DNA of 64,000 bases, taken from Deltaproteobacteria bacterium. GTDB taxonomy: Bacteria; Desulfobacterota; Desulfobacteria; Desulfobacterales; SpSt-501. Each line of letters begins with the position of its first letter. Positions within the stretch are counted from its first letter, which is position 1. This document shows positions 50,637 through 58,011 of the stretch, piece after piece. The notes beneath the pieces are model-generated. The model was not told the origin of the DNA. It ran no database searches and saw only the letters and a program-made list of their open reading frames with translations. The position numbers and the translations under genes are program-made. The DNA lies in contig JACRCN010000033.1 in NCBI GenBank assembly GCA_016219005.1, forward strand, positions 7,595 through 71,594, in the 5' to 3' direction.

Positions 50637-51263
50637 ATGAAGCTCCTATCAACAAACACCCAAGATTCCCGGTTCGACAGGGCGGCTGCAGTCTTCAAAA
50701 AGCACAGCGGCATCCTGCACACGGCACAGGCGCTTCGTGCAGGAATCCACCCCAGCACGATCTACGCTATGCGCAACTCTGGAGCGCTGGAGGTGGTAAG
50801 CCGCGGCGTGTACCGTCTTGCCGACAGCCCCCCTCTGGGCAACCCGGACCTGGTGACCGTCGCGACCCGCGTTCCAAGCGGGGTGATTTGCCTGATTTCT
50901 GCGCTGGCCTTTCACAAGCTCACCACCCAGATACCTCACGAGGTGCACGTGGCCCTGCCGCGCGGCGCGGAGGAGCCACGTGTGGCTCACCCACCGATCA
51001 AGACCTACAGGTTCACCGGGGATGCGTTTACGGAGGGAGTGAAGACGCATGAACTTGACGGTATCGGCGTGCGCATCTACAGCCCGGAGAAGACGCTCTC
51101 CGACTGCTTCAAGTTTCGAAATAAAATCGGCCTCGATACAGCGGTAGAGGCAGTTCGCTTTTACCGTGAACGCAAACGCGTCAAGGTGGACGACCTAATG
51201 CGATACGCATCGATCTGCCGGGTTGAAAAGATCATCCGCCCATACCTGGAGGCGCTTCTGTAA
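50637..51263 (+). CDS. type IV toxin-antitoxin system AbiEi family antitoxin
   Basis: N-terminal wHTH pattern LHTAQALRAGIHPSTIYAMRNSGALEVVSRGVYRL and a C-terminal AbiEi domain. Its stop overlaps the toxin start (TAATG). Confidence 0.8.
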   Translation: MKLLSTNTQDSRFDRAAAVFKKHSGILHTAQALRAGIHPSTIYAMRNSGALEVVSRGVYRLADSPPLGNPDLVTVATRVPSGVICLISALAFHKLTTQIPHEVHVALPRGAEEPRVAHPPIKTYRFTGDAFTEGVKTHELDGIGVRIYSPEKTLSDCFKFRNKIGLDTAVEAVRFYRERKRVKVDDLMRYASICRVEKIIRPYLEALL

Positions 51264-52174
51264 TGGCAAGGAATATCAAGAACTCTGCCGCCTCGGTTCA
51301 TCAACGCCTTCTCAACAAGGCCAAGGAGGCATCCCGCCCCTTCAACGAATTTTTGCAGCACTTCGCCAACGAGCGGTTTATCTACCGGCTCTCCAAAAGC
51401 CCCCACGCAGACAGGTTCATCCTCAAGGGGGCCTTGATGCTCGCAGCGTGGAGCGCACCAGCATCACGCCCCACAATGGACATCGATCTGCTCGGAAGAA
51501 TCGACAACAGCCTCGAAGTGATCGTCTCAGCAGTGAAGGACGCCTGCCGGATGGATGTCGAGGCGGATGGCACATCCTACCACGCGGAAACGGTGACTGC
51601 CGCGCGGATCACGGAAGATGCCGAATACCAAGGCATACGCGTCCATGTCCAAGGCAGCCTGGGCAACGCCCGCGTCCCCCTGCAGATTGACATCGGATTC
51701 GGGGATGTGATCGTGCCGTGTCCCAGCAGGGTCGCCTATCCTGTTCTACTCGACTTTTCACGCCCCGAGTTGGACGGCTACAGCATGGAGAGCACCATCG
51801 CCGAGAAGTTCCAGACCATGGTAAGGCTTGGCGTTCTGAACAGCCGGATGAAGGATTTCCACGACATTTGGATGCTGAGCCGAACGTTTGATTTCAGGGG
51901 CGAACTATTGGCCGAGGCGGTCAAGAAGACTTTCGAGAACCGAAACACGCTGGTCTCCGTTGACTCTGCGGTCTTCAATCCTTCTTTTGTGAAGGATGGG
52001 AACAAGAAGGTTCAGTGGCAGGGGTTTATCAAGAAAGCCAAGCTGACCGATGCGCCAGAGGACTTCGAGGATGTGGTCGCGGTCGTCAAGCTGTTCCTCG
52101 CGCCTGTCGCAGTTTCCTTTTTTAAGCGAGGGGTGTTCCGTAGCATTTGGAACGCTCCTGGACCGTGGCGATGA
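51263..52174 (+). CDS. nucleotidyltransferase AbiEii/AbiGii toxin family protein
   Basis: DUF1814-type motifs FILKGALMLAAW...RPTMDIDLLG and DIGFGD, 303 aa. Confidence 0.85.
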   Translation: MARNIKNSAASVHQRLLNKAKEASRPFNEFLQHFANERFIYRLSKSPHADRFILKGALMLAAWSAPASRPTMDIDLLGRIDNSLEVIVSAVKDACRMDVEADGTSYHAETVTAARITEDAEYQGIRVHVQGSLGNARVPLQIDIGFGDVIVPCPSRVAYPVLLDFSRPELDGYSMESTIAEKFQTMVRLGVLNSRMKDFHDIWMLSRTFDFRGELLAEAVKKTFENRNTLVSVDSAVFNPSFVKDGNKKVQWQGFIKKAKLTDAPEDFEDVVAVVKLFLAPVAVSFFKRGVFRSIWNAPGPWR

Positions 52175-52223: not shown

Positions 52224-54626
52224 TTATCGGTCATTCCACGACCGGATCTGGTACCCCATTGCCCTGTACCCTCGCTGGCGCTTCTCCCACATCCGGGTAA
52301 GCTGTGGGTGGTCAAGTTCAACGTAATCGTAGATGCGTACGTCCCGCTTGTCTGCATGCTCCCGGTGCAGGCGGCCTGCATACTGCTGCAGGGTTCCTTT
52401 CCAGGAAATCGGCATGCCCAGCACCAGCGTATCAAGGGGCGGATGGTCAAAGCCCTCGCCGATCAGGCGGCCGGTGGCCAACAGCACCCGTGGGGCAAAA
52501 TCATCCAGTTCGGCAAGCTCTGAAAGGGTAGCCATGCGCTGCTTTTTCGACAGCCGCCCGTGCAGAATAAAACAGCGCATGACTTCATCCCCAAGGGCAT
52601 TACGCAGCAGGTCCAGGTGCTCGGTCCGTTCAGTCAGAACCAAGACTTTTCGGCCCTCCTGATATGCGGCCAGAATATCTTGCGCGACGCGCCGGGTGCG
52701 GTTGGTGTCGTTGGCGAGCATGCGAAACACATCCTGGATGCCAGACTCCGGGGGGATATTCGGTGTGGGTAAGCTTTGCGGCCACACCTCCAGCTGGGCG
52801 GGAGCACTTTCAGGTCGTGAGGCGCTGTGTTGGATCGGACCGCACTGCATAAAAATAATCGGCTGATGCCCATCTCGTCGGATCGGCGTGGCAGTCAGGC
52901 CGATTACGTACTTTGCCTTGGCTTGTTTGAGAATCGCCTCAAAGGAAAAAGCCGAAAGATGATGGCATTCGTCAACAATAATCTGGCCGTACTCATCGAG
53001 CAATTCCGGTAAATCATCGATCCTTGACAGCGACTGCATGACTGCGATGTCGATCTTTCCAGTCGGGTTCTTCTTGCCAGCGCCGAAAACACCCAGAGTA
53101 CCCTTGGATAGTTTAAGAAAGGTCGTCAGCTGCTCCTGCCATTGCCGGAGCAGTTCAGTGCGGTGCACCAGGATCAGGGTGCTCAACTTGCGCCGAGCAA
53201 TCAACGCAGCAGCAGTGACCGTTTTGCCGAAGGCTGTCGGGGCGCATAGGATTCCCACCTCCTGCTTCAGCATCACCCTGACGGCCGTCTTCTGATCTTT
53301 TCTAAGCTCGCCAGTGAATTTGACCGGGACCCTACACCCCGCGACCCGCTCGTCCTGAATCTCTGCCCGGATGTCATTGTGTTCCAGCAGCTCCAGCAAC
53401 GCATCCATGCATCCCCGGGGTAGGCCAATGTATTGGGGAAAATTCTCGGCGCAGCCGATGATGCGCGGTTTGTTCCAGACCGGCAGACGCATGGCCTGGG
53501 CCTTGTAGAATTCCGGGTTTTGAAAAGCAGCCAGGCGGATCAAGCGGTTTGCCAGCGGCTGGGACAGATCAGCTTTAGCGATGAAAATCTGATTGGCCCG
53601 CACCAGTGTCAGAGATTCCGGCAGTGGGCCGGATATCCGGCTGGAGGCTTGCGCTGGCTGTTTCCATGGCTCCCGTCCTTCCTCTTCCGAGACAAAGGCC
53701 ACATCGAGCAGATGTCTGCCGCCTGTGGTCCGCAGAATGGCTCTCTCCAACTCAAACCGAGGCATGGGCCTGATCGACGTCAGAAAGCCCCACTGGTCCG
53801 GATAGGGAACGAAGGCTTCATCGACAAATAGGCTGCGCCCTTGCTCGCGGGGCTGCTTCTGCAAAGGAAGTGCGATCAGATTGCCGAATCCACCCTTGGG
53901 CAAAGTGTCCTGGTTGGGAAAAAACCGGTCGTAGCTGGACAGGGAGAGCTGCCGGGTGCGGTCACAGGTGTGACTGATCAGGGCCGCGCCGAGCTGCCGC
54001 GCCTCGCGGGCCGGGATCGGGTCGGTAAAAAATATCCAGACATGCGCACCCTTTCCGGAGCGTGATATTTCCAGTACTGCAGGGATGCTAAGTTCCCGGC
54101 ACGAATCCATGAAGGCCCGGGCATCCTCGCGCCAGTCGTCTTCGTCGAAGTCCGCTGCAAGAAAAAAACAGGTGTCGTCGGCAAGGAGCGGATAGACGCC
54201 CACCGTGTGTTGACCGACCAGATGGTCGTAAATCACCTGATCGGTGACCGGCAACAACAAGCGCTGGTCGCAGTCGCCGCACTTGCCCCTTGGCTTATAA
54301 CAGATGCCGGGCCGCCACTCGTTGCCGCAGGCGGGCGAATAGCCCGACTTGCCCTTGGCTGACTCCCAGCGCAGCGGGTACGCATCGCTGCGACCACGAA
54401 ACAGACGACGGAAGAGTGCGACTTTTTCCGCAGGTTCCAAAAGTCGGTGCTGCTTTTCGCACGGATAGCGTGCGGTGGTTTCGTGAAGAATAGTTGCGGT
54501 ATCCTCCGGCTCCCAGGGGATGCCATGCTTTTCTAGCAGGGTCACCAGGCGGGCGATTTCAGCCCGCAGGCGCTCGCACTCCTCGCAGGACCAGGACTTG
54601 CCGTCAGCAGCAGCGTCACTTTTCAT
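52224..54626 (-). CDS. archaeo-eukaryotic primase (PrimPol)-like domain fused to SF2 DEAD/DEAH-box helicase (conflict-system type)
   Basis: The N-terminal half carries RGRSDAYPLRWESAKGKSGYSPACGNEW...C..C...FLAADFDEDDW...SRSGKGAHVWIFF (AEP-like). The C-terminal half has helicase motifs APTAFGKTV (I), VDECHH (II), TATP (III) and QYAGRLHR (VI). Confidence 0.8.
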   Translation of the reverse strand: MKSDAAADGKSWSCEECERLRAEIARLVTLLEKHGIPWEPEDTATILHETTARYPCEKQHRLLEPAEKVALFRRLFRGRSDAYPLRWESAKGKSGYSPACGNEWRPGICYKPRGKCGDCDQRLLLPVTDQVIYDHLVGQHTVGVYPLLADDTCFFLAADFDEDDWREDARAFMDSCRELSIPAVLEISRSGKGAHVWIFFTDPIPAREARQLGAALISHTCDRTRQLSLSSYDRFFPNQDTLPKGGFGNLIALPLQKQPREQGRSLFVDEAFVPYPDQWGFLTSIRPMPRFELERAILRTTGGRHLLDVAFVSEEEGREPWKQPAQASSRISGPLPESLTLVRANQIFIAKADLSQPLANRLIRLAAFQNPEFYKAQAMRLPVWNKPRIIGCAENFPQYIGLPRGCMDALLELLEHNDIRAEIQDERVAGCRVPVKFTGELRKDQKTAVRVMLKQEVGILCAPTAFGKTVTAAALIARRKLSTLILVHRTELLRQWQEQLTTFLKLSKGTLGVFGAGKKNPTGKIDIAVMQSLSRIDDLPELLDEYGQIIVDECHHLSAFSFEAILKQAKAKYVIGLTATPIRRDGHQPIIFMQCGPIQHSASRPESAPAQLEVWPQSLPTPNIPPESGIQDVFRMLANDTNRTRRVAQDILAAYQEGRKVLVLTERTEHLDLLRNALGDEVMRCFILHGRLSKKQRMATLSELAELDDFAPRVLLATGRLIGEGFDHPPLDTLVLGMPISWKGTLQQYAGRLHREHADKRDVRIYDYVELDHPQLTRMWEKRQRGYRAMGYQIRSWNDR

Positions 54627-54702: not shown

Positions 54703-55053
54703 TTATGCGTTTAGTCTTTCGAACAGTTCAAGACTATTAGCGGCAGCGATTGCCTCGCCCCGATAAGCCGCTCGGGTTACGGCCGACTGGCTGATTCCAA
54801 GTAATATGGACTTTACCGCGCTCCACCCGCCCAGGCTGCGAATCAATCCGCCGCCGATCAGCTCCGGCCGTCTTCCCAGGGCAATTCCCCGTTCAACGAA
54901 ATGCCGATACTGCCGCCGCGCCTTGGAGACCGACTTCCCAAAAAGACGCAGCACCGCATCGTTCGGCTGCCATTCGTGTGGTAAACCATAAACCGCATCG
55001 GGCCTTGGTTGGTCAGCGTGGAGATCAACCCAATGCTTTCTTTGCGGGCACAA
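54703..55053 (-). pseudogene. Y1 (IS200-like/HUH) transposase-like protein relic, C-terminal part
   Basis: EWQPNDAVLRLFGKSVSKARRQYRHFVERGIALGRRPELIGGGLIRSLGGWSAVK then LGISQSAVTRAAYRGEAIA. This matches the C-terminal half and the DnaA-C-like HTH of a ~300-aa transposase-like family common in deltaproteobacteria, with an internal deletion. Confidence 0.5.
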
Positions 55054-55328
55054 AACCGTATCGCCGAAGTCTGTCCCATCGGAGCGTAGCTGCGACCGTA
55101 TTGGTAGCGCAGTGCTGCTGCGCCTCAGGTTTCAGTTTGCGTGCATCAGCTATTTCCATGCACGCCTCTCTATCACAGCTTAACTATGTCTGCCATATTT
55201 ATTGCCGCGGTAATAATATGCCGAAGACCTTAACCATTATCGCTCCGGCAATAAAATATGCCAATTTTCAGAGGGTTGAGGGCAGGCAACTCCGTGAGCC
55301 TGCGCGCGGTGAAGAATTGGCGGATTCA

Positions 55329-57128
55329 TTAAGCTCTGGCGTAATAACTGATTAGAGCAGTCATTCCTAAGGCGTGAAAAAGTATAGCAGGGAAAACGCT
55401 TTGCGCTCTTTCTCTGACAAAACCGGTGGATAGTCCGAGCACAAATGCCGCACACAGGCACTCAGCAGTTGCGCGGGCCTGAAAACCATTCTGGAGATAG
55501 TCCGGATAAAGCAGAATGTAAACCATGAATAAAGAATATAACGTGGCAGCAGCGACAGATGGAAACGAAAAAAACCAACGGCTGTTGTGGCTTTGAATGT
55601 TATTGGGGTTCACTAAAATTCCGTGAGTTAAACTGCGGAACAAGAGCTCTGAAGCTAAAGGAACAGCCATAATAAGATAAATTGCGCCTTCACGAGTGGG
55701 AAGCAATTTCATCCCCTTGTATGGGAAATAAACTCCGATTCCCATCACGAAAAAAAATACAAATGGCAATAAGATCCACCAGCTTTTGCCCACAGGAGCT
55801 GCAAATCCAAACTGCCAGGGCCTTCTATGGGCAAAAACGCTCAGGCACAATGTGGTAAAGAAAATCAATGTAGCAAAAAATATGAAATCAGTCATCGTGA
55901 AAAGATCACGTGCAGTTGTGCCGCTGAGCCGGGATCGTGAAATGAGATACGATGCGCAAAGAGTTGAAATTCCAATTATGGCACTTGTTAGGACCAGGCT
56001 GCGAATGAAAGGGATTACCTTGCTGCCAAGGCCGGGTTTCTGAAAAGCATCACGACACGCTTTTGCGATTTGCAGCGGCGCTAATTTGGTGCCGCCGCCT
56101 TCACGAGGGGAGCCGCCTATGTCAGCCGAACCGCCCCACTTATTGCCATCCGCACGACCTCTCACCGCCGGGTCGACGAAATTCAGAATATTATACACAG
56201 CATTCAAGTCCCCTGGCATGAAAGGGTCCCAGCTGCGTAATGTATAAGCTCCTTCTTCTTTCTTGAGCACTACCAACCCAAGGCTTTCACCATACAACCT
56301 GTCCAGATAGGGCTCTAACTCGTAGATACCTAACTGGGTCTCAACTACAACAGCGATTCGGTTATTGCCGAGCTCAATACGAGCCAGTTCTTTCACATCT
56401 TTTACGTCATCTAATTCCTCTGACTTGTAAATGATTCGGTCCACCTTATGCAATATCAGAGCGGTATGCTCCAGAAAGTCAGTTTCCTTCCAAAGTCCCT
56501 TGCTTTTTAAATCAACCTCATCCGCCCTTAAGTAATCTATCATTTTTTTTGTATTCATAAGAGGCTTGGGCTGGAAACCGCTTAAAGCAGTCATCTCCAG
56601 TCCGTGCGAATCGATTATGCCTTCCAGCCGGACCAGTGCACATAAACGATTCAGCCCACCAAATTCCTTTTGCTGTATCCTCACGTGATTCAAAATCAGC
56701 CAAATTGCAAGAATTGTGTCCAAATCAGGTTCGTTTGCAATGACTCTCCAGTCCCGGCCGCGTAGATCCATGCGCTTTAGAATCATCACTAAGACCTGTT
56801 CGCAGGTCGAGAGCGTGAACGGCCGCATGCACTTTTCATGGTGGTCGAAATTATAGATTTGTTTTTCGAGGTCCATAAAGGGTTCAGACTGTGCCACACC
56901 GTCGAGATATATCGTGCAGGGAGGCGATTTTCGCACGGCTGAGGATGAGACCGTCAAACCCGCCTCAACTTGAACCTCAATATTCGGGGCTTCAAGGCAA
57001 ATCAGGATTCTCTTGTTATCACGATCCTTTATTGTGTAGCGTTCGGGCTGGCTTCGAATAGAAGATAAACTCAACTTGGGTTCATCTTCGGATGAGCTAT
57101 TGCCCCCTGAATATTTCATATTGTTCAA
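55329..57128 (-). CDS. membrane protein: N-terminal DHH/DHHA1-like phosphoesterase-like domain fused to C-terminal CPBP (CAAX protease-like) multi-TM domain
   Basis: 599-aa ORF in an AT-rich segment. It has NFDHHE (DHH-like motif) and a GGSADIGGSPREGGG (GGGH-like) region, then about 7 TM helices with CPBP motifs SELLFRS...H and FPAILFHALGM. An alternative ATG start lies at 57119. Confidence 0.65.
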   Translation of the reverse strand: MNNMKYSGGNSSSEDEPKLSLSSIRSQPERYTIKDRDNKRILICLEAPNIEVQVEAGLTVSSSAVRKSPPCTIYLDGVAQSEPFMDLEKQIYNFDHHEKCMRPFTLSTCEQVLVMILKRMDLRGRDWRVIANEPDLDTILAIWLILNHVRIQQKEFGGLNRLCALVRLEGIIDSHGLEMTALSGFQPKPLMNTKKMIDYLRADEVDLKSKGLWKETDFLEHTALILHKVDRIIYKSEELDDVKDVKELARIELGNNRIAVVVETQLGIYELEPYLDRLYGESLGLVVLKKEEGAYTLRSWDPFMPGDLNAVYNILNFVDPAVRGRADGNKWGGSADIGGSPREGGGTKLAPLQIAKACRDAFQKPGLGSKVIPFIRSLVLTSAIIGISTLCASYLISRSRLSGTTARDLFTMTDFIFFATLIFFTTLCLSVFAHRRPWQFGFAAPVGKSWWILLPFVFFFVMGIGVYFPYKGMKLLPTREGAIYLIMAVPLASELLFRSLTHGILVNPNNIQSHNSRWFFSFPSVAAATLYSLFMVYILLYPDYLQNGFQARATAECLCAAFVLGLSTGFVRERAQSVFPAILFHALGMTALISYYARA

Positions 57129-57268
57129 AAGGCACCTCGTTCAATTTCCATGTTCTTAAAGTCGTCATGCAAGGGATGATATGGATGAATTCGGGCATTT
57201 CAAGCAGATTTAGGAATTGCTATAAGCTGCATTTCTCACCGGAAAGCATGTCTGACGGGGACGTTGTT

Positions 57269-57640
57269 TCAACGCTGCCTACCTTCGCGTTTGAGCGGAT
57301 CTATTGCAGCCAGCATCAATTTCGAATCGTGGTCCACTTGCTGAGCGGCCCGGCTGCCGGCCGAACGCACCTGCTTAAACCGCCGCGCCACATAGCTCCC
57401 GGGTATCGACAACTGCCGGCGGGCCATGGTACCGGTCAGTCCACGAACTTGCGCACCCGCCCCGGTGCGCAGCAGAAAATGGGCATAGCTGCTCACCAGC
57501 GTCCAGGCATGGCAAGGGGCTTGGCTATCCGTGAACAGATTCGATAGCCGCTCAAGAAAGTTCTCTCGGTCGCTCTCAGTGGATGCCCTATCGGGTATAT
57601 CGAAGATGGGGCTATCTTTGTTAGTAGTTGCTGCTTCCCT
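57269..57640 (-). pseudogene. Y1 (IS200-like/HUH) transposase-like protein relic, N-terminal part
   Basis: IFDIPDRASTESDRENFLERLSNLFTDSQAPCHAWTLVSSYAHFLLRTG...IDPLKREG matches the N-terminal half of the family seen at 54703..55053. The HUH motif is degenerate (SYAH), the first ~25 codons are missing and the ORF ends in a premature stop. Confidence 0.45.
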
Positions 57641-57684
57641 CTATCATATTTTATAACATATGAATTGGAATGCGATTTGGTTTT

Positions 57685-58011
57685 TTAACTGCGGTTCGCA
57701 ACCATTTCATAGCCTGCGCTATTCCAGGCCTCGACACCACCATCCAGGATTTCCACGTTGGTATATCCTATCATCATGTATTTAATTGCCTGACCGGCAG
57801 AAGTCACCTGGCCGGGTCAGGTACAATAAAAGATGATCTCCTGTCCCTTTTTAAGCTCTGATAATCTATCTTGAAACTCTGTGCGCGTGATCGCGCCCGG
57901 CAACCACATTTTGCTGCATGTCTCTTCATCCGGATAAGCACAGACCAAAATTGCACCTCCGTCCTTGGTCCGGCGATTAACCTCTTCTGGTGAAATGCGT
58001 ATAGGTTCCAT
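57685..58011 (-). CDS. single-domain rhodanese-like selenoprotein (Sec at codon 65)
   Basis: The ORF track stops at TGA 57817..57819. Read-through gives ...GQEIIFYCT-U-PGQVTSAGQAIKYMMIGYTNVEILDGGVEAWNSAGYEMVANRS. This completes a rhodanese domain, with the TGA placed in the active-site loop. GGAG lies 8 nt before the ATG. Confidence 0.7.
57789..57821 (-). promoter_or_regulatory. putative SECIS hairpin of the rhodanese selenoprotein
   Basis: mRNA CCUGACC(C)GGC(C)AG-GUGACUU-CUGCCGGUCAGG. It has a 12-bp stem with two bulged C, the UGA in the lower stem, and a GU-containing 7-nt loop. Confidence 0.5.

Follow-up and report, generated by a model that had tools for sequence, protein, structure and literature searches.

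We analysed a window of 64,000 nucleotides (nt) of contig JACRCN010000033.1, from the genome assembly GCA_016219005.1 of a Deltaproteobacteria bacterium of the Desulfobacterales, and describe here a gene on its minus strand that encodes a protein of 599 amino acids (aa) made of a soluble N-terminal domain and a C-terminal membrane domain. An initial annotation, produced from the nucleotide letters alone, had proposed that this gene is a novel fusion between a cytoplasmic DHH/DHHA1-like domain and a CPBP (CAAX-protease-like) membrane domain, carried on an AT-rich cassette. The open reading frame (ORF) and all the motifs cited by that annotation are where it placed them: NFDHHE at aa 93-98 (with FDHH at nt 56838-56849), the glycine-rich segment WGGSADIGGSPREGGG at aa 331-346, SELLFR at aa 493-498 and FHALGM at aa 584-589. 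The features of the gene are given below from its 5' to its 3' end, domain by domain; residue counts refer either to a set of 30 close members (the window protein and 29 homologues) or to a broad set of 62 representatives differing by more than 50%.

57176..57203, minus strand: promoter-like element TTGAAA-16 nt-TATCAT, found by motif scan, inside the upstream block conserved with homologues
57133..57138, minus strand: ribosome-binding site GAGGTG, 4 nt upstream of the TTG start
55329..57128, minus strand: ORF of the fusion protein, 599 aa, with a TTG start at 57128 and a TAA stop at 55329-55331
56031..57047, minus strand: cytoplasmic N-terminal domain (N-domain), aa 28-366, an orphan family whose fold has two alpha/beta lobes and is DHH/DHHA1-like by structure
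56901..56903, minus strand: D76, candidate motif II, at a strand end (TIYLD-G), invariant in alignments A1 and A3, aligning to VVD
56838..56849, minus strand: F94-D95-H96-H97, candidate motif III, with D, H and H invariant down to 25% identity
56718..56729, minus strand: P134-D135-L136-D137 (NEPDLDT), a motif-I-like DxD with a strand before and a helix after; N132, D135 and D137 invariant
56610..56624, minus strand: E169-G-I-I-D173 (EGxIDxxG), candidate motif IV, with D173 and G176 invariant
56103..56138, minus strand: W331-GGSADIGGSPR342, putative counterpart of the DHHA1 GGGH motif, a Gly-rich loop that precedes the final helix of lobe 2
55332..56030, minus strand: domain of seven transmembrane (TM) helices, aa 367-599, predicted to have its N-terminus inside, last four helices CPBP-like (AlphaFold2 helices and hydropathy)
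55368..55682, minus strand: match to Pfam PF02517 (Rce1-like/CPBP), aa 483-587, E=2.2e-5, 25.1 bits for a gathering score of 22.4
55635..55652, minus strand: S493-E494-L-L-F-R498, degenerate motif 1 (EExxxR), with E494 kept in 56/62 and R498 in 57/62 representatives
55362..55418, minus strand: V571-R-E-R574...S577...F584-H585-A-L-G-M589, a conserved RER/S cluster followed by a degenerate motif 3 (HxxxN lacking its Asn)

The ORF is complete and its expression signals are conserved. The promoter-like element and the GAGGTG are identical across four loci that are only 77-86% identical overall. The start codon is kept as TTG or GTG in the homologous loci, and the in-frame ATG found three codons downstream is not conserved (it is CTG in L001). 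The ratio of non-synonymous to synonymous substitution rates (dN/dS) is 0.17-0.22 for the whole ORF relative to close homologues. When computed separately for the two halves against the three closest homologues, it is 0.12-0.13 in the N-domain, the more constrained half, and 0.17-0.28 in the membrane domain. Since these values are low in both domains, both halves are functional and under purifying selection. The layout proposed initially, cytoplasmic at the N-terminus and multi-pass at the C-terminus, fits the hydropathy of the protein: residues 1-360 have no hydrophobic segment (the highest 19-residue Kyte-Doolittle mean is 1.07), the boundary between the soluble and the membrane part lies around aa 367, and seven hydrophobic helices start from residue 368 in the full-length AlphaFold2 model and in the hydropathy profile. 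The mean number of lysines and arginines per loop alternates (2.5/0.7/3.9/1.3/1.8/0.8/1.1) in a way that fits the positive-inside rule, hence the predicted topology with seven TM helices and a cytoplasmic N-terminus.

The initial annotation had itself raised the possibility that a sequencing error had joined two genes. We can rule this out because the same architecture of about 600 aa is conserved. A search covering 5.8 billion proteins returned 648 homologues of the 599-aa protein, the 120 best of which have, in most cases, the full length (576-649 aa, with about ten shorter ones) and 52-86% identity, and the full ORF of about 590 aa is present in 78 of the 80 loci that we fetched. The sources of these top homologues are mostly metagenome bins of Desulfobacterales/Thermodesulfobacteriota. 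In a scan of species-representative genomes, 196 stretches encode relatives, which puts the architecture in at least 196 species-level genomes, again mostly of Desulfobacterales, including the cultured Desulfosarcina variabilis, D. widdelii, D. alkanivorans and D. cetonica, as well as a genome bin of Desulfosudis oleivorans. The architecture is not rare: it is that of a conserved, unstudied gene of Desulfobacterales. The earlier statement that no characterised protein has this architecture appears to be correct, as the sources name the protein by its CPBP half alone. More precisely, the annotation pipelines label these proteins only as 'CPBP protease', 'Abi protein' or 'hypothetical' (the first being the NCBI and JGI annotation of the fusion protein), and a search of the literature for CPBP combined with DHH found nothing relevant.

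A few members lie outside this taxonomic range. Copies that are 55-88% identical to the N-domain occur in metagenome-assembled genomes (MAGs) labelled Bacillota, Hyphomicrobiales, Roseivirgaceae, Ignavibacteriales and Dadabacteria (loci L013, L048, L066, L069 and L087), which reflects either horizontal gene transfer or contamination during binning. One fusion variant, P0176 (754 aa), has an extra N-terminal extension of about 190 aa and reads 'LDHPE' in place of the DHH motif, which may mean that some members of the fusion family are catalytically inactive. Its cluster includes proteins from Phototrophicaceae and Binatia MAGs. Since these are outside Thermodesulfobacteriota, the fusion between the N-domain and the CPBP domain spans several phyla.

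The N-domain is absent from the libraries of protein families that we searched. It was unmatched in Pfam, with E-value limits of 1-10, in the window protein, its 29 homologues and 10 stand-alone relatives. Scans against NCBIfam, PHROGs and PADLOC gave no match, and neither phmmer nor a profile search matched it to the sequences of the PDB. Yet the family is large: a profile of the domain (aa 24-366), searched against 1.84 billion cluster representatives (≤50%-identity), found 672 proteins at E <= 1e-3, so that this is an uncatalogued domain that no profile library covers despite its many members. Among the 150 best-scoring matches, 87 carry a nearly complete domain. In 62 of these it is followed by a CPBP-like C-terminus, four end in other or divergent tails, and about 21 consist of the domain on its own (320-410 aa). 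The N-domain is an autonomous domain that also occurs as stand-alone proteins. The genes of the latter are complete, they are named 'hypothetical protein' in every source, and those examined have no CPBP partner nearby. A substantial set of residues remains invariant at 25-37% identity to the window protein: D76, G77, P83, D95, H96, H97, R102, T105, C109, Q111, N132, D135, D137, D173, G176 and D230, and, in the loop of lobe 2, W331, G333, G338, G339, P341 and R342.

Two contexts of the stand-alone genes deserve mention. In one lineage (L009:400-2075 and L090:5001-6685), the gene overlaps by 4 bp a downstream gene encoding a hydrolase of the HAD superfamily (PF00702), which suggests an operon of two phosphoester-related enzymes. 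In addition, the stand-alone homologue P0532 (347 aa, L091:5001-6044) is encoded in a metagenome scaffold of 228 kb where its neighbours are dozens of small ORFs on the same strand without Pfam matches, together with a DUF2828 protein, a dCTP deaminase and a PP2C. This scaffold looks like that of a jumbo phage.

Is the N-domain related to DHH/DHHA1 phosphoesterases? The full-length AlphaFold model has a predicted local distance difference test (pLDDT) score of 74.6 and is poor around the FDHH loop, where it falls below 50, so we modelled the N-domain again on its own. With a diverse alignment, this gave a pLDDT of 88.8 and a predicted template modelling score (pTM) of 0.88, with no segment below 50. 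In this model, long helices connect two alpha/beta lobes. Searches of the PDB with Foldseek ranked first the catalytic domain of GdpP (5xsp, E=1e-3, probability 0.84), followed by 6mtz and by TmPDE, the DHH/DHHA1 phosphodiesterase of T. maritima (5o1u, E=5e-3). Lobe 2 was matched by the C-Ala domain of AlaRS, which has the DHHA1 fold (probability up to 0.95, TM-score about 0.4). The search of the viral library BFVD gave a similar picture. The first match was an Erwinia phage 'Phosphohydrolase' (E=1.7e-4, probability 0.93); the next ones included a 'DHH family phosphohydrolase' (5e-4), a 'Putative phosphohydrolase', the 'Oligoribonuclease NrnB' of phage AR9 (1.8e-3), a 'Phosphoesterase' and an 'Exopolyphosphatase', with DHH phosphohydrolases of giant viruses also among the top matches and alignments of about 310-370 columns.

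These structural matches, together with the set of residues that never vary (D, DHH, DxD, D and GG-x-PR), are the reason why we think it rather probable that the N-domain is a very divergent relative of the DHH/DHHA1 family with a relocated motif I. When the N-domain was aligned by hhalign in relaxed mode to a bona fide DHH-DHHA1(-CBS) family, grown from a gene of locus L006, the program paired TIYLD76 with LIVVD (motif II), FD95HH with wDHH (motif III) and GGSPR342 with GGHPR, the glycine loop of DHHA1, where the His is replaced by Ser in our family. The DxD at 135-137, which lies between motifs III and IV and not in the canonical order I-II-III-IV, could then be the relocated motif I.

Several observations weigh against this relationship. 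No sequence method ties the N-domain to DHH/DHHA1, be it Pfam up to E=10 on 40 members or the profile search of the PDB. The hhalign comparison was not significant in global, local or relaxed mode (P=0.07 with 16 sequences and 0.36 with 88), for a template that is narrow (20-120 sequences, effective number of sequences, Neff, of about 2). The E-values of Foldseek are borderline, the TM-scores are around 0.2 (0.4 for the DHHA1-like lobe) and the root-mean-square deviations (rmsd) are above 14 A, with 17-20 A for the DHH-family proteins; such values would be expected if the lobes were hinged differently, but they are weak in themselves. The canonical N-terminal motif I (HxNxDFD) has no counterpart, the invariant N132-x-x-D135-x-D137 being placed after the DHH. 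Finally, the placement of motif IV differs, as EGxIDxxG aligns to GIYEDTG in one relaxed hhalign run and not in the other. The DHH/DHHA1 assignment made initially thus stands on structure, where DHH enzymes are the top matches of two libraries at borderline scores, and on motif content, whereas profile methods and motif order fail to back it.

One could take these negative results at face value and regard the N-domain as unrelated to DHH, i.e., as a new alpha/beta hydrolase or binding domain, dependent on a metal or a Cys (the invariant C109 and R102 are of note here), whose tripeptide and Gly loop arose by convergence. The Foldseek matches would then reflect generic Rossmann-like lobes. In line with this, PTP/PRL phosphatases are also among the PDB matches, and the top match 6mtz is uncharacterised and is not detectable by sequence as a DHH protein; the failure of every sequence and profile test, the TM-scores of about 0.2 and the non-canonical motif order are equally what one would expect. 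We nevertheless consider this explanation unlikely. Two independent structure libraries rank DHH-family enzymes first, with two-lobe alignments of nearly full length, the invariant residues amount to what a DHH/DHHA1 active site needs, and motifs II, III and DHHA1 are collinear with those of a real DHH protein.

The genomes that encode the fusion protein also have a canonical member of the DHH family. For example, a DHH-DHHA1-CBS protein of 432 aa, annotated as 'nanoRNase/pAp phosphatase', is encoded at L006:2959-4257 (plus strand), 5 kb from the homologue, and this gene is widely conserved in Desulfobacterales, alongside that of the fusion protein. Since these genomes keep a canonical NrnA-like gene, the fusion protein is not simply the housekeeping nanoRNase.

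In the membrane half, PF02517 matches above its gathering score in the window protein, and is matched by all 30 aligned members, with a best E-value of 2.8e-9. We conclude, in line with the initial annotation, that this half belongs to the CPBP fold family. The roles of the canonical catalytic residues of such a domain emerge from the structural work on MmRce1, as summarised in PMC11980579. The catalytic water is bound by the first Glu of EExxxR together with the His of motif 2, and the oxyanion hole is made up of the two conserved residues of HxxxN, His and Asn. Here, the first position of motif 1 is never a Glu in the 62 representatives (it is A/L/C/T/M/V/I/F/G/S, and S/V/L/W/C/I in the 30 close members), even if all close members have E494 and R498. 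There is no sign of motif 2 (FxxxH): between motifs 1 and 3, no column has at least 30% His, except that of H502, a residue of the E494 helix located 8 positions further on. In motif 3, H585 is kept in all 30 close members and in 46 of the 62 representatives (74%), and the position four residues further on is M/I/V/L/F/A and never N or D. The cluster formed by R572, E573, R574 and S577 is kept in 53-58 of the 62. It follows that three of the four canonical catalytic residues of CPBP proteases are absent family-wide. The remark in the initial annotation that the first Glu pair is altered to SE was therefore correct, but understated the extent of the loss.

We conclude that the membrane half is probably not a canonical protease. 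Non-catalytic CPBP folds have been described: SpdC/LyrA, LnsB and APH-1 are non-protease partners of other proteins (PMC7387801). Given these precedents and the loss of the catalytic residues, it is more likely that this half serves as an anchor, a regulator or a presenter of a ligand or substrate. Against this, E494 and R498 are conserved, as is H585 among the close members, and the CPBP half may have a non-canonical proteolytic or other membrane-embedded activity.

Taken further, this argument would make the membrane domain the active part of the protein, as an intramembrane protease of the glutamic type whose catalytic set is modified (E494, H502/H585 and R572-E573). The N-domain would then have a non-catalytic role in recognition or regulation, just as the DHH-like Cdc45 or the DHHA1-like C-Ala domain of AlaRS bind partners or nucleic acids without hydrolysis. 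Such a scheme would account for the PF02517 match above threshold in all members, for the invariance of E494 and R498 (and of H585 in the close family), and for the annotation by NCBI and JGI; the lobe-2 structural match of best probability is, moreover, the non-catalytic C-Ala domain. However, three residues whose roles are known in Rce1 (PMC11980579) are missing family-wide, namely the Glu that opens EExxxR, the His of motif 2 and the Asn of motif 3, and even H585 is found in only 46 of 62 representatives of the wider family. The N-domain is the half more constrained in terms of dN/dS, it has an invariant set of Asp and His that is typical of metal catalysis, and it exists alone with no CPBP partner nearby. 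On balance, we regard an active protease with an inert N-domain as rather improbable. This calls for a correction of the annotation, as these proteins should not be taken for active glutamic endopeptidases, and it adds another candidate to the non-protease CPBP proteins, in this case fused to its presumptive catalytic partner.

Our overall reading, which we hold with moderate confidence, is that the protein is a stand-alone inner-membrane enzyme combining a divergent N-domain of DHH/DHHA1 type (or an analogue of it) with a non-protease CPBP module. The acidic and His cluster of lobe 1 (candidate ligands D76, D95-H96-H97, D135-x-D137 and D173) would bind a divalent metal, and the GGSPR loop of lobe 2, with R342, would hold the phosphate or the nucleotide of the substrate. 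The N-domain would cleave, by hydrolysis, the phosphoester or phosphoanhydride bond of a small nucleotide-like molecule at the inner face of the membrane; candidate substrates are nanoRNA/pAp, a cyclic di- or oligonucleotide, or polyphosphate. The module of seven TM helices would anchor the enzyme and might gate or present the ligand. From the predicted topology, we infer that the conserved E494/R498 and R572-E573-R574-S577 lie near the cytoplasmic leaflet and face it beside the N-domain. The analysis establishes the gene, its conservation, its topology pattern, the CPBP match with the motif losses, the resemblance in structure and the insertion; catalysis, metal binding, the class of the substrate and the role of the membrane module are all inferred here. 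If the relationship with DHH is true, the superfamily gains a form with a rearranged order of motifs and a new membrane-coupled architecture, relevant to the turnover of nucleotide messengers or nanoRNA in sulfate reducers.

A more specific version of this mechanism can be drawn from the ability of Rce1 to bind prenyl-Cys. The dead CPBP fold would bind a lipid-anchored or membrane-delivered ligand in its cavity and present it to a rearranged DHH phosphoesterase, whose strand-DxD-helix unit (motif I) would have moved to a place behind motif III. The protein would be a new kind of membrane-gated hydrolase that acts on a lipid-linked (pyro)phosphate or on a nucleotide messenger such as c-di-AMP in Desulfobacterales. 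We view it as a speculative idea, distinctly unlikely in this precise form.

The gene is of foreign composition. The elements that surround it are the following.

57683-58011, minus strand: rhodanese ORF of 108 codons with an in-frame TGA at 57817-57819 ('FYCT-TGA-PGQVTS')
57272..57616, minus strand: upstream half of a RayT/IS200-like Y1 transposase pseudogene, with clear homology at 57458-57574 (residues 31-69) that then decays
55294..57245, minus strand: low-GC block (GC content 0.463), putative acquired unit, with promoter, ribosome-binding site, ORF and about 35 nt of 3' sequence
54706..54978, minus strand: downstream half of the same transposase pseudogene, with residues 153-210 and 293-338 and an internal deletion of about residues 211-292
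52224-54626, minus strand: AEP-TOTE primase (PF22548, E=6e-100) and SF2/ResIII helicase, 800 aa, component of a TOTE conflict system
50637-52174, plus strand: AbiEi antitoxin/AbiEii nucleotidyltransferase toxin pair (type IV toxin-antitoxin/abortive infection)

Both statements of the initial annotation on this setting hold, that the cassette is AT-rich and that it splits a transposase-like pseudogene. The guanine-cytosine (GC) content of the ORF is 0.464, versus a mean of 0.578 in the window, which places it in the lowest 0.3% of 1800-bp windows. When concatenated, the fragments on the two sides match one family of RayT/IS200-like Y1 transposases of about 338 aa (PF01797), with E-values down to 2e-46; PF08299 is also present in some of the RayT-like relatives. 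Pfam and NCBIfam did not recognise these fragments, which only a direct homology search detected. The block at 55294-57245 is 85.6% identical by blastn to the closest homologous locus (L005) over exactly this span, and nothing outside of it is similar. We found neither terminal inverted repeats nor target-site duplications at its borders. Just outside the block shared with the homologue, between the 3' end of the ORF and the downstream piece of the transposase, there is an inverted repeat (55198-55255) with arms of 20 nt that are 80% complementary and a spacer of 18 nt.

The gene and its own promoter probably arrived recently by horizontal transfer, as a low-GC unit of about 1.95 kb that inserted into the RayT-like transposase gene. 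The deficit in GC, of 6-10 points, is common only to the closest relatives (L010-L012), while family-wide the GC content of the gene matches that of its flanks (mean difference of -0.01). For this reason, the clade of this organism probably acquired the gene recently from a lineage of Desulfobacterales with lower GC.

The gene sits in an islet of about 9 kb (~50.6-59.5 kb) between housekeeping genes. The TOTE gene adjoins the split transposase on the downstream side and forms, with AbiEi/AbiEii, a small islet of defence and mobile elements. On the other side, the rhodanese ORF matches PF00581 (E=3.6e-8) when its TGA is read as Cys. This codon is at the position where single-domain rhodaneses such as GlpE carry their catalytic Cys, and it is spanned by a hairpin (-19 kcal/mol, z=-2.5). 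Rather than being a pseudogene, the ORF probably encodes a selenocysteine-containing rhodanese.

The initial annotation considered a role in defence or immunity. In such a role, an Abi/CPBP membrane protein coupled to a nuclease or phosphodiesterase would degrade or sense (cyclic) oligonucleotide signals, against phages or for self-protection from bacteriocins. There is some ground for this idea, as the gene is compositionally foreign, lies inside a transposase gene, and is close to the AEP-TOTE helicase and to AbiEi/AbiEii. One stand-alone homologue is on the phage-like scaffold of 228 kb, and CPBP/Abi proteins include bacteriocin immunity factors. Membrane-associated DHH-DHHA1 nucleases are able to degrade cyclic oligoadenylates (cOA), and phage DHH phosphodiesterases have been proposed to act in counter-defence (PMC7824862). 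However, defence genes were neighbours in this window only among the loci examined. The neighbours of five homologues on long contigs (including those 86% and 79% identical) differ each time and are mostly housekeeping genes. None is conserved in the 80 loci, the commonest neighbouring family being found in just 15 of them. With E-values allowed up to 10, PADLOC matched 0 families, and our searches of INPHARED (phages), PLSDB (plasmids) and IMG/VR found no relatives. The GC content of the gene is native in most genomes, as expected of a vertically inherited core gene. Since the neighbourhood is not conserved and PADLOC has no match, the defence hypothesis is unsupported and we consider it very unlikely.

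How does the protein compare with known systems? Among the proteins with DHH/DHHA1 domains, several are associated with membranes, including an archaeal nuclease that degrades cOA (cited in PMC7824862). GdpP (YybT) and other membrane-associated DHH/DHHA1 proteins, the nearest functional analogues, resemble the fusion protein in having a cytoplasmic two-lobe module, of apparent DHH/DHHA1 type in the fusion protein, tethered to the membrane. However, GdpP has two N-terminal TM helices, followed by a PAS domain, a degenerate GGDEF and a DHH/DHHA1 domain that is recognised by Pfam. The fusion protein, which has no Pfam match to PAS, GGDEF or DHH/DHHA1, has its soluble domain at the N-terminus, a CPBP anchor with seven TM helices at the C-terminus, and a DxD placed after the DHH. 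The stand-alone nanoRNases NrnA, NrnB and TM1595 (TmPDE) have the length (~320-340 aa) and apparently the two-lobe plan of the stand-alone forms of the N-domain, with which they share the DHH tripeptide and, it seems, a loop of GG-x-[HS]-P-R type. They differ in that the N-domain has no detectable sequence similarity to them, lacks the N-terminal motif I (HxxxDxD), and has additional invariant residues in R102, C109-E110-Q111 and N132. Finally, 6mtz, an uncharacterised protein of 344 aa from Helicobacter pylori G27, has the length of the stand-alone N-domain proteins and is a top Foldseek match for both models (E=1e-3 to 3e-3), with 10-12% identity. It was found neither by the N-domain profile nor by the DHH query, and our literature search returned no paper mentioning it. 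Since it is itself uncharacterised, it adds no functional information.

As for the membrane half, it shares with the Rce1/MrtX-type CPBP proteases the match to PF02517, the placement of the motifs on the equivalents of TM4 and TM7, and a multi-pass fold, to which one can add a weak Foldseek match to Rce1 (4cad, E=0.3). It departs from them by its xExxxR, by the lack of the motif-2 His and of the Asn of HxxxN, and by the large cytoplasmic domain at its N-terminus. The closest analogy is with SpdC/LyrA and LnsB of S. aureus and with APH-1 of gamma-secretase, which have kept the CPBP fold and lost the catalytic residues, and are presumed to scaffold, regulate or present a substrate for another catalytic unit (PMC7387801). 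In these systems the partner is a separate protein (respectively WalK, LnsA and presenilin), whereas here the putative partner is fused to the CPBP module and is phosphoesterase-like.

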